From: a virus | Lineage: Duplodnaviria; Heunggongvirae; Uroviricota; Caudoviricetes | DNA: 13,999 bases | Reading direction: 5' to 3' (one strand) | IMG/VR virus record: IMGVR_UViG_2563366967_000002 | Span: 1-13,999 of that record | In this document: positions 13,919-13,999 of the stretch, one piece after another | Layout: the number at the start of each line of letters is the position of its first letter | Position numbering within the stretch: the first letter of the stretch is position 1 | Made by a program: the position numbers and the translations under genes | Notes under the pieces: generated by a model | Seen by the model: the letters and a program-made list of their open reading frames with translations, nothing else | The model's database searches: none | What the model was told of the DNA's origin: nothing

Positions 13919-13951
13919 CCGCAGCACGTCGTGCGCAAGAACGTGCTGCGG
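13919..13951. other. Perfect 11-bp-stem hairpin between convergent tfa and ybcY copy 2
   Basis: ccgcagcacgt / acgtgctgcgg with an 11-nt loop. The U-run (attttttccc) is offset by ~10 nt on the plus strand, so a weak terminator at best. An imperfect copy sits at 8558-8591. Confidence 0.5.
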
Positions 13952-13958
13952 CTGGATG

Positions 13959-13999
13959 CTATTTTTTCCCTGAAGCGGAAAACATTACTACAGTACCTT
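13959..13999 (-). CDS. ybcY: Second copy of the YbcY-like methyltransferase, 3' end only (last 13 codons); truncated by window end
   Basis: 13935-13999 matches 8575-8640 with one mismatch, including the TAG stop (rc of 13959-13961) and the C-terminal codons of the 8599..9267 ORF. Confidence 0.55.
   Translation of the reverse strand, partial: GTVVMFSASGKK

Follow-up and report, generated by a model that had tools for sequence, protein, structure and literature searches.

This locus raises the question of why a stretch of phage DNA ends inside a second copy of a gene end that it already contains. The stretch analysed here, 13,999 nucleotides long and called the window below, could hold a segment copied in place, two related prophages lying side by side or a product of faulty assembly. 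The preliminary description stated that the last 65 nt are almost identical to 8575–8640, and a recount of 13935–13999 against 8575–8639 indeed gave 64 of 65 identical nucleotides with 1 mismatch, only the end coordinate 8640 being one too high (8639). Across the whole window the repeat finder reported a direct repeat of 75 nt (8565–8639 versus 13925–13999, 95%), in which 71 of 75 nucleotides are identical and 4 differ on recounting. Gapped BLAST stretches it to 88 nt (13913–13999 versus 8552–8639, 92%, E = 2.8e-29), the chance expectation for such a match within the window being about 1e-29. Translated on the minus strand, both copies give the same C-terminus, GTVVMFSASGKK*. The repeat contains the last 12 codons and the stop of a ybcY-type gene plus about 34–47 nt of 3' flank. 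Copy 1 (8565–8639; repeat finder, translation) comprises the 3' flank and the final 41 nt of ybcY-1, and copy 2 (13925–13999; repeat finder, recount and BLAST) the 3' flank and the final 41 nt of ybcY-2, which is truncated by the window end. What is left of ybcY-2 (13959–13999, minus strand) is the stop and 12 complete codons, corresponding by translation to an annotated CDS for a class I SAM-dependent methyltransferase in Escherichia coli strain 04-00955 (25959–26615 of locus L001, whose coordinates are those of the window plus 12000).

The window is E. coli DNA. Strain 04-00955 (NZ_CP035498.1) was used as the reference, to which the window aligns without gaps at 99.70% identity with 42 mismatches; 38 of these fall in 1–800 and none after 5551, the last 8.4 kb (5552–13999) being 100% identical. 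Positions 12300–13999 are also identical in strain VG38-53E1. The first 800 nt, in gpJ, are about 5% diverged from 04-00955 and the remainder is nearly or fully identical, a pattern suggestive of a recombination patch in J, the tail-tip gene; no genome in the collection is identical to the entire window, the gpJ patch being different. Past the position of the window end, 04-00955 continues with a full ybcY-2, an intact ompT-2, an argU-derived attR and then ybcH, nfrA, nfrB and cus, and the same continuation is found in strains S88, Z1323HEC0475 and RM14723. At this position a methyltransferase gene is annotated in 40 of 40 genomes with the unit 1/unit 2 junction among the matches listed (78 in total). 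The window itself stops 41 nt into ybcY-2, and its own genome would be expected to continue likewise, judging from the genomes identical over the last 8.4 kb. The second ybcY that had been predicted downstream is thus found in 04-00955, identical over 5552–13999, and in the three other strains. A second tfaX/ompT-like block had been proposed with it; its ompT part is present as ompT-2, whereas neither a tfaX-like remnant nor cargo lies between ybcY-2 and ompT-2.

The DNA left of the boundary described below belongs to unit 1. Its tail genes (1..5632, plus strand), recognised from ORFs, Pfam and the annotation of 04-00955, are the C-terminal part of gpJ, lom, a 689-aa side tail fibre and two small ORFs. 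This region is most simply read as the right arm of a lambdoid prophage whose intD abuts argU in 04-00955 and which is apparently complete. In that strain, unit 1 starts with folD, tRNA-Arg (argU) and intD, and its genes include integrase, regulator, Q antiterminator, lysis, terminase, head and tail. The side tail-fibre ORF (2982–5051; L001 14982–17051) is open over 689 aa in both the window and 04-00955. A break in this fibre in 04-00955, as RefSeq has it (a partial pseudogene and a separate 'head spike fiber' CDS), was considered and rejected as an annotation quirk, the ORF being open in both sequences. The trio of tail-fibre genes of 2070, 279 and 294 nt also occurs in phage ev243.

The tail-fibre module of unit 1 closes with the 3' end of a tfa' gene (5652..5768, plus strand), which matches 13788–13893 at 92–96% (about 96% over 97 nt) and starts the backbone that is colinear with unit 2. 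Between this tfa 3' end and ybcY-1 sits a 2.8-kb cargo block (5769..8551, minus strand) annotated as Mn catalase, two ferritin-like genes and a general stress protein, where colinearity with unit 2, S88 and ev243 breaks. The block is missing from unit 2, from unit 1 of S88 and from ev243, and is present in the icd-site prophage of O157:H7 493/89 and in Z1323HEC0475; it looks like a separate mobile 'moron' cassette. The next cargo gene, ybcY-1 (8599..9267, minus strand), is an intact ORF of 222 aa with Pfam matches to Methyltransf_12/23/25/11; the Methyltransf_12 score of 37.6 bits against a cut-off of 30 places it among the predicted class I SAM-dependent methyltransferases. Between ybcY-1 and the hydrolase gene, in a tfaX-like position, lies a tfa' remnant (9324..9629, plus strand), annotated as a partial tail fiber assembly protein and matching the C-terminal part only of Pfam Caudo_TAP; only its first ~27 nt are kept in unit 2. 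An alpha/beta hydrolase gene follows (9813..11297, minus strand; Pfam Abhydrolase_1/4 and annotations), which is cargo of unit 1 only. The slot between the tfaX-like remnant and ompT holds variable cargo, being filled by the alpha/beta hydrolase in the window, S88, O157 and ev243 and by appY in K-12 and RM14723, and empty in unit 2; the comparison drew on L004 19153–22634 for K-12 and on L008 1–6138 for RM14723. The last cargo gene of unit 1 is ompT-1 (11484..12437, minus strand), intact and encoding a predicted omptin protease, whose match to Pfam Omptin (PF01278) covers positions 1–283 of 283 with E = 2.8e-130. Both ompT-1 and ompT-2 encode 317 aa.

The boundary between the two units is an attachment site. 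At 12860..12904 (plus strand) lies an exact 45-nt copy of the 3' end of tRNA-Arg argU, identical to argU and to the attP core of ev243. No tRNA was called by ARAGORN on L001, because the cores are only 45-nt tRNA fragments; they were located by inspection of the sequence and then by BLAST with argU. The 45-nt fragment is apparently annotated as a tRNA in places, as 'tRNA-Pro' in phage Turner and 'tRNA-OTHER' in STEC307. BLAST with argU revealed three direct copies of the core, namely intact argU, the exact copy at 12860–12904 and a copy with 4 mismatches at L001 ~28237–28282, before ybcH. Next to the middle core come about 610 nt from the 3' half of an integrase gene of the intD type. This int' (12905..13513, minus strand; Pfam Phage_integrase, annotated as a pseudogene) is the C-terminal half of a DLP12 intD-type tyrosine integrase, frameshifted and with its N-terminus deleted, and aligns over 668 nt at 94% with one gap to argU-intD of 04-00955 and of K-12. 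An integrase thus adjoins the core at the left end of each unit, intD at argU in 04-00955 and int' at the middle core.

The arms around the cores can be traced to two sources. In ev243, attP consists of a P arm, the exact 45-nt core and a P' arm reading 'ttacaatt...tttatatcctccata', and this same P' arm adjoins argU in 04-00955. The middle att site carries the phage P arm on its left and 'ttaaaatt...tttatttcttctata' on its right, the latter being the arm that adjoins argU in ST131, where the remnant stands alone. The middle site has an attP-like P-core-P' structure. Positions 12800–12906 are 99% identical to the attR region of K-12, and the attR of DLP12 has been described as a 47-bp argU-like sequence (PMC6379469). 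Taken together, the arms fit the products of recombination between an ev243-like attP and the attL of the remnant.

To the right of the middle core, unit 2 is about 3.4 kb long and is ordered as att core, int', tfa', ybcY-2, ompT-2 and degenerate attR, followed by ybcH. It lies between argU and ybcH-nfrA in 04-00955 and S88; the window holds only the middle core. Its tfa' is a tfaD-like remnant (13530..13904, plus strand; Pfam Caudo_TAP and annotation), 91–92% identical to K-12 tfaD, and the tfa'/ybcY-2 junction is 91–92% identical to tfaD/ybcY of K-12. The fusion of int' to tfa' evidently arose by deletion of nearly the whole prophage. The locus as a whole thus reads argU/attL, unit 1 (ending in tfa', catalase cargo, ybcY-1, tfa', hydrolase and ompT-1), middle att, unit 2, attR and ybcH.

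By its argU site, its intD-type integrase and its tfaD-ybcY...ompT right arm, unit 2 is of the DLP12 type. DLP12 of K-12 (argU, intD ... tfaD, ybcY, tfaX, appY, ompT, attR) occupies the same attachment site with the same 45–47-nt argU-derived core, and it shares with unit 2 the intD-type integrase (int' 94%) and the tfaD/ybcY junction (92%), and with the window the ompT-proximal attR arm (99%). Compared with DLP12, however, unit 2 is far more reduced, its int' being fused straight to tfa'; neither tfaX nor appY stands between its ybcY and ompT, and no envY is annotated after its attR. Its ybcY is intact, whereas that of K-12 is a pseudogene, and a second, apparently complete prophage stands on the left here. 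In K-12, envY lies between attR and ybcH (L004 23148–23909), and the annotations of 04-00955, S88, ST131, Z1323HEC0475 and RM14723 show none from ompT-2/attR to ybcH. Since envY is annotated in K-12 and not in the others, the flank outside attR varies as well.

The two units are related through two paralogous blocks. Block A of unit 1 (8552..9350; ybcY-1 and its flanks, 799 nt) is 97.2% identical to L001 25913–26710, and its counterpart in unit 2 begins at 13913 and runs beyond the window end. Block B (11327..12906; ompT-1 with its flanks, the phage P arm and the att core) is 94.1% identical over 1581 nt to L001 26703–28282, outside the window, and its noncoding parts are 87–88% identical between the units. 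Unit 2 has no counterpart of 9351–11326, the stretch of the tfa remnant and the alpha/beta hydrolase gene. At this gap the two blocks overlap by about 8 nt (9343–9350 and 11327–11334 versus L001 26703–26710). The gap junction shows about 5–8 nt of possible microhomology (TTGAA), from which no mechanism is drawn; it may be the scar of an illegitimate deletion, or chance.

A further repeat in the window, absent from the preliminary description, concerns the tfa 3' ends: the repeat finder paired 5655–5760 with 13788–13893 at 92% and detected a third, more diverged end at 9477–9582. These three copies form a family with 75–92% identity and mark module boundaries, namely tail-fibre module/cargo, ybcY/hydrolase and int' deletion/ybcY-2. 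Such positions are consistent with tfa 3' ends acting as mosaic recombination joints.

Comparison with other genomes showed where the closest relatives of each copy are located. ybcY-1 is 97.3% identical to ybcY-2, and 99.9% (nucleotide) and 100% (amino acid) identical to the copy at the icd site of O157. Similarly, ompT-1 is 98.1% identical in nucleotides to ompT-2 and 99.6% to ompT-1 of S88, and ompT-2 is 99.2% identical to ompT of ST131 as against 98.1% to ompT-1. Identity evidently follows position, not genome. The cargo of unit 1 is present at about 99% identity and 100% coverage in the sequenced phages ev243, 2G7b, PhiR49_1, PhiR26_1 and Turner, and in O157:H7 493/89 the cargo block closes a lambdoid prophage at the icd/e14 site (by iraM and bluR). 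Unit 2 occurs alone, directly beside intact argU, in ST131, the degenerate attR being common to both; it is covered to at least 80% in 1120 of 5426 complete genomes. The junction is found, at a coverage of at least 80%, in 78 of the 5426 complete genomes (about 1.4%), S88 included, and is one full-length BLAST piece in 40 of 40 genomes among the matches listed. These genomes stem from many laboratories and hosts, S88 being an early finished genome, and direct inspection of S88, Z1323HEC0475 and RM14723 showed the tandem layout. In RM14723 the same remnant stands beside another incoming phage (pinR, ydfK, ybcY, tfa', appY, ompT). The pairing is recurrent, given its presence in 78 of 5426 genomes and the different unit 1 in RM14723.

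It is very probable that two prophages integrated in tandem at argU, a later lambda-like unit 1 having entered the attL of an older remnant. The resident would have been an old, almost fully deleted prophage of the DLP12 type (unit 2) at argU, which is the sole occupant in many E. coli. The newcomer would have been an apparently complete lambda-like (ev243/Nesevirus-like) prophage that brought a ybcY and an ompT of its own in the right arm, as cargo immediately inside attP. The tyrosine integrase of the newcomer would have recombined the phage attP with the attL of the remnant in the 3' end of argU, setting the ompT-proximal arm of the phage against the int' of the remnant (at 12860–12904) and leaving ybcY-1/ompT-1 about 5.4 kb upstream of the resident ybcY-2/ompT-2. 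We infer the role of Int and, from the state of decay and the distribution of the remnant, the order of arrival (remnant first). Genomes with a single remnant could in principle derive from tandem ancestors through excision of unit 1.

That the second copy was made in place is a very improbable alternative. Unequal recombination between the tfa 3' ends (5655, 9477 and 13788), or replication slippage, would have copied tfa-ybcY-ompT, with later divergence and gain or loss of cargo. The repeated tfa 3' ends do flank the units and are possible substrates of recombination, and tfa 3' end, ybcY, ompT and att core stand in colinear order in both units. Copying in place should nevertheless leave the two units as each other's closest relatives and their junction without a site-specific signature. 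The observed identities are 99.2–99.9% to copies elsewhere and 97.3–98.1% to the neighbour, each copy being nearer to those in other genomes, at other sites and in free phages, and an exact att core with int' lies precisely at the unit boundary, with arms that equal attP x attL products. Besides, many genomes have unit 2 alone beside argU in an unchanged int'-tfa' arrangement, ST131 sharing the degenerate attR as well, and different unit 1 variants are paired with the same unit 2. An assembly artefact, in which an expansion or mis-join yields a false second copy, is the least probable reading and close to negligible: repeats of 0.8–1.6 kb at 94–97% identity can mislead short-read assemblers, and the window alone is compatible with it, but the junction recurs in 78 complete genomes at a coverage of at least 80% (one full-length piece in 40 of 40 among the matches listed), the copies differ at 2–13% of positions, and their flanks are unique, with catalase cargo and hydrolase around one copy and int'/tfa' and ybcH around the other.

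Hardly more probable than copying in place is a tandem of two full-length related phages, the right-hand one having decayed later in this lineage, so that the remnant would not be the older partner. Int action is known to produce tandem dilysogens of a single phage type, which would have the same layout of three cores. Yet ST131 has the remnant layout of int'-tfa', ybcY and ompT in the absence of unit 1 and shares the degenerate attR, at least 80% of unit 2 is covered in 1120 of 5426 genomes, and the same remnant is found beside a different unit 1 in RM14723. As the remnant occurs both alone and beside another unit 1, the int'-tfa' deletion would predate the present pairing. The attR core of unit 2, moreover, carries 4 substitutions as against the exact middle core, which suggests different ages. 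Returning to the later entry of unit 1 beside an older remnant, of the two options that the preliminary description had left open, a genuine tandem of two related prophage right arms and an assembly artefact, the former agrees with the att core and int' at the boundary and with the occurrence of each unit alone, and the latter falls with the 78 genomes, the 2–13% divergence and the unique flanks of each copy. The two copies of the 'segmental duplication' would be independently acquired phage cargo, two homologues borne by separate phages and joined by site-specific integration, and therefore not a segment copied in place.

The closest known relatives of unit 1 are ev243 (Nesevirus, 'Lambda_ev243'), 2G7b, PhiR49_1, PhiR26_1 and Turner, which carry the whole of 8552–12906 (ybcY, tfa', hydrolase, ompT and att core) at about 99%. 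Their plaque-forming status was taken from database records (host fields, ICTV genus), a literature search on ev243, 2G7b, PhiR49 and PhiR26 having brought up no relevant paper. The ev243 genome runs J, lom, stf, ybcY, tfa', hydrolase, ompT, attP and int, and its attP shares with the window the exact 45-nt core and, except for one base, the P arm. It lacks the Mn-catalase/ferritin-like insertion (5769–8551), differs from the window in gpJ and the tail fibre (85–94%), and was sequenced as a phage, not as an integrated copy.

Tandem prophages at one att site, formed by secondary Int-mediated integration into a resident attL or attR, are established in lambda dilysogens and in E. coli O157. The present locus shares with such tandem polylysogeny the three direct cores, the attP-like middle site and an integrase or its remnant to the right of the first two cores. 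It differs in that the partner is a remnant of about 3.4 kb, not a full prophage, and in that both units carry homologous cargo, which doubles the host-relevant ompT and ybcY. The arrangement is therefore already known in kind, is present and annotated in public genomes, and involves no new mechanism.

Multiple omptins per E. coli strain have been described as a chromosomal ompT plus a plasmid-borne ompP or arlC/ompTp, OmpP and ArlC being about 74% identical to OmpT, and for three UPEC isolates Southern blots gave a hint of 'two ompT genes' (Desloges et al., 2019; PMC6854850). Here, by contrast, both copies are chromosomal, 5.4 kb apart and 98.7% identical in protein. Two intact chromosomal ompT genes are present in each of six tandem loci inspected (S88 included), their coding regions being about 98% identical; in 04-00955 the regions upstream of ompT-1 and ompT-2 are 87.3% identical. 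A literature search for tandem or two chromosomal ompT copies returned no explicit description, only the account of the DLP12 att site (PMC6379469) and the Southern-blot hint (PMC6854850).

For annotation and assembly quality control, the finding means that a collapse or expansion artefact would be the wrong label for the repeat and that a second ybcY and ompT should be expected downstream. PCR typing would count the two intact ompT genes of tandem strains as one. It is possible, if rather doubtful, that ompT doubling driven by phages could raise or diversify OmpT expression and resistance to antimicrobial peptides, that it could explain the hint of two ompT genes in UPEC (PMC6854850), and that a reversible tandem could serve as a switchable dosage of the gene. 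If so, the tandem would be reversed when Int excises unit 1 or when the ybcY/ompT repeats recombine with each other. The locus would offer a clean example of how secondary integration beside a prophage remnant doubles phage-borne genes for host fitness, the doubled gene here being that of the OmpT protease, to which a role in resistance to antimicrobial peptides is ascribed.
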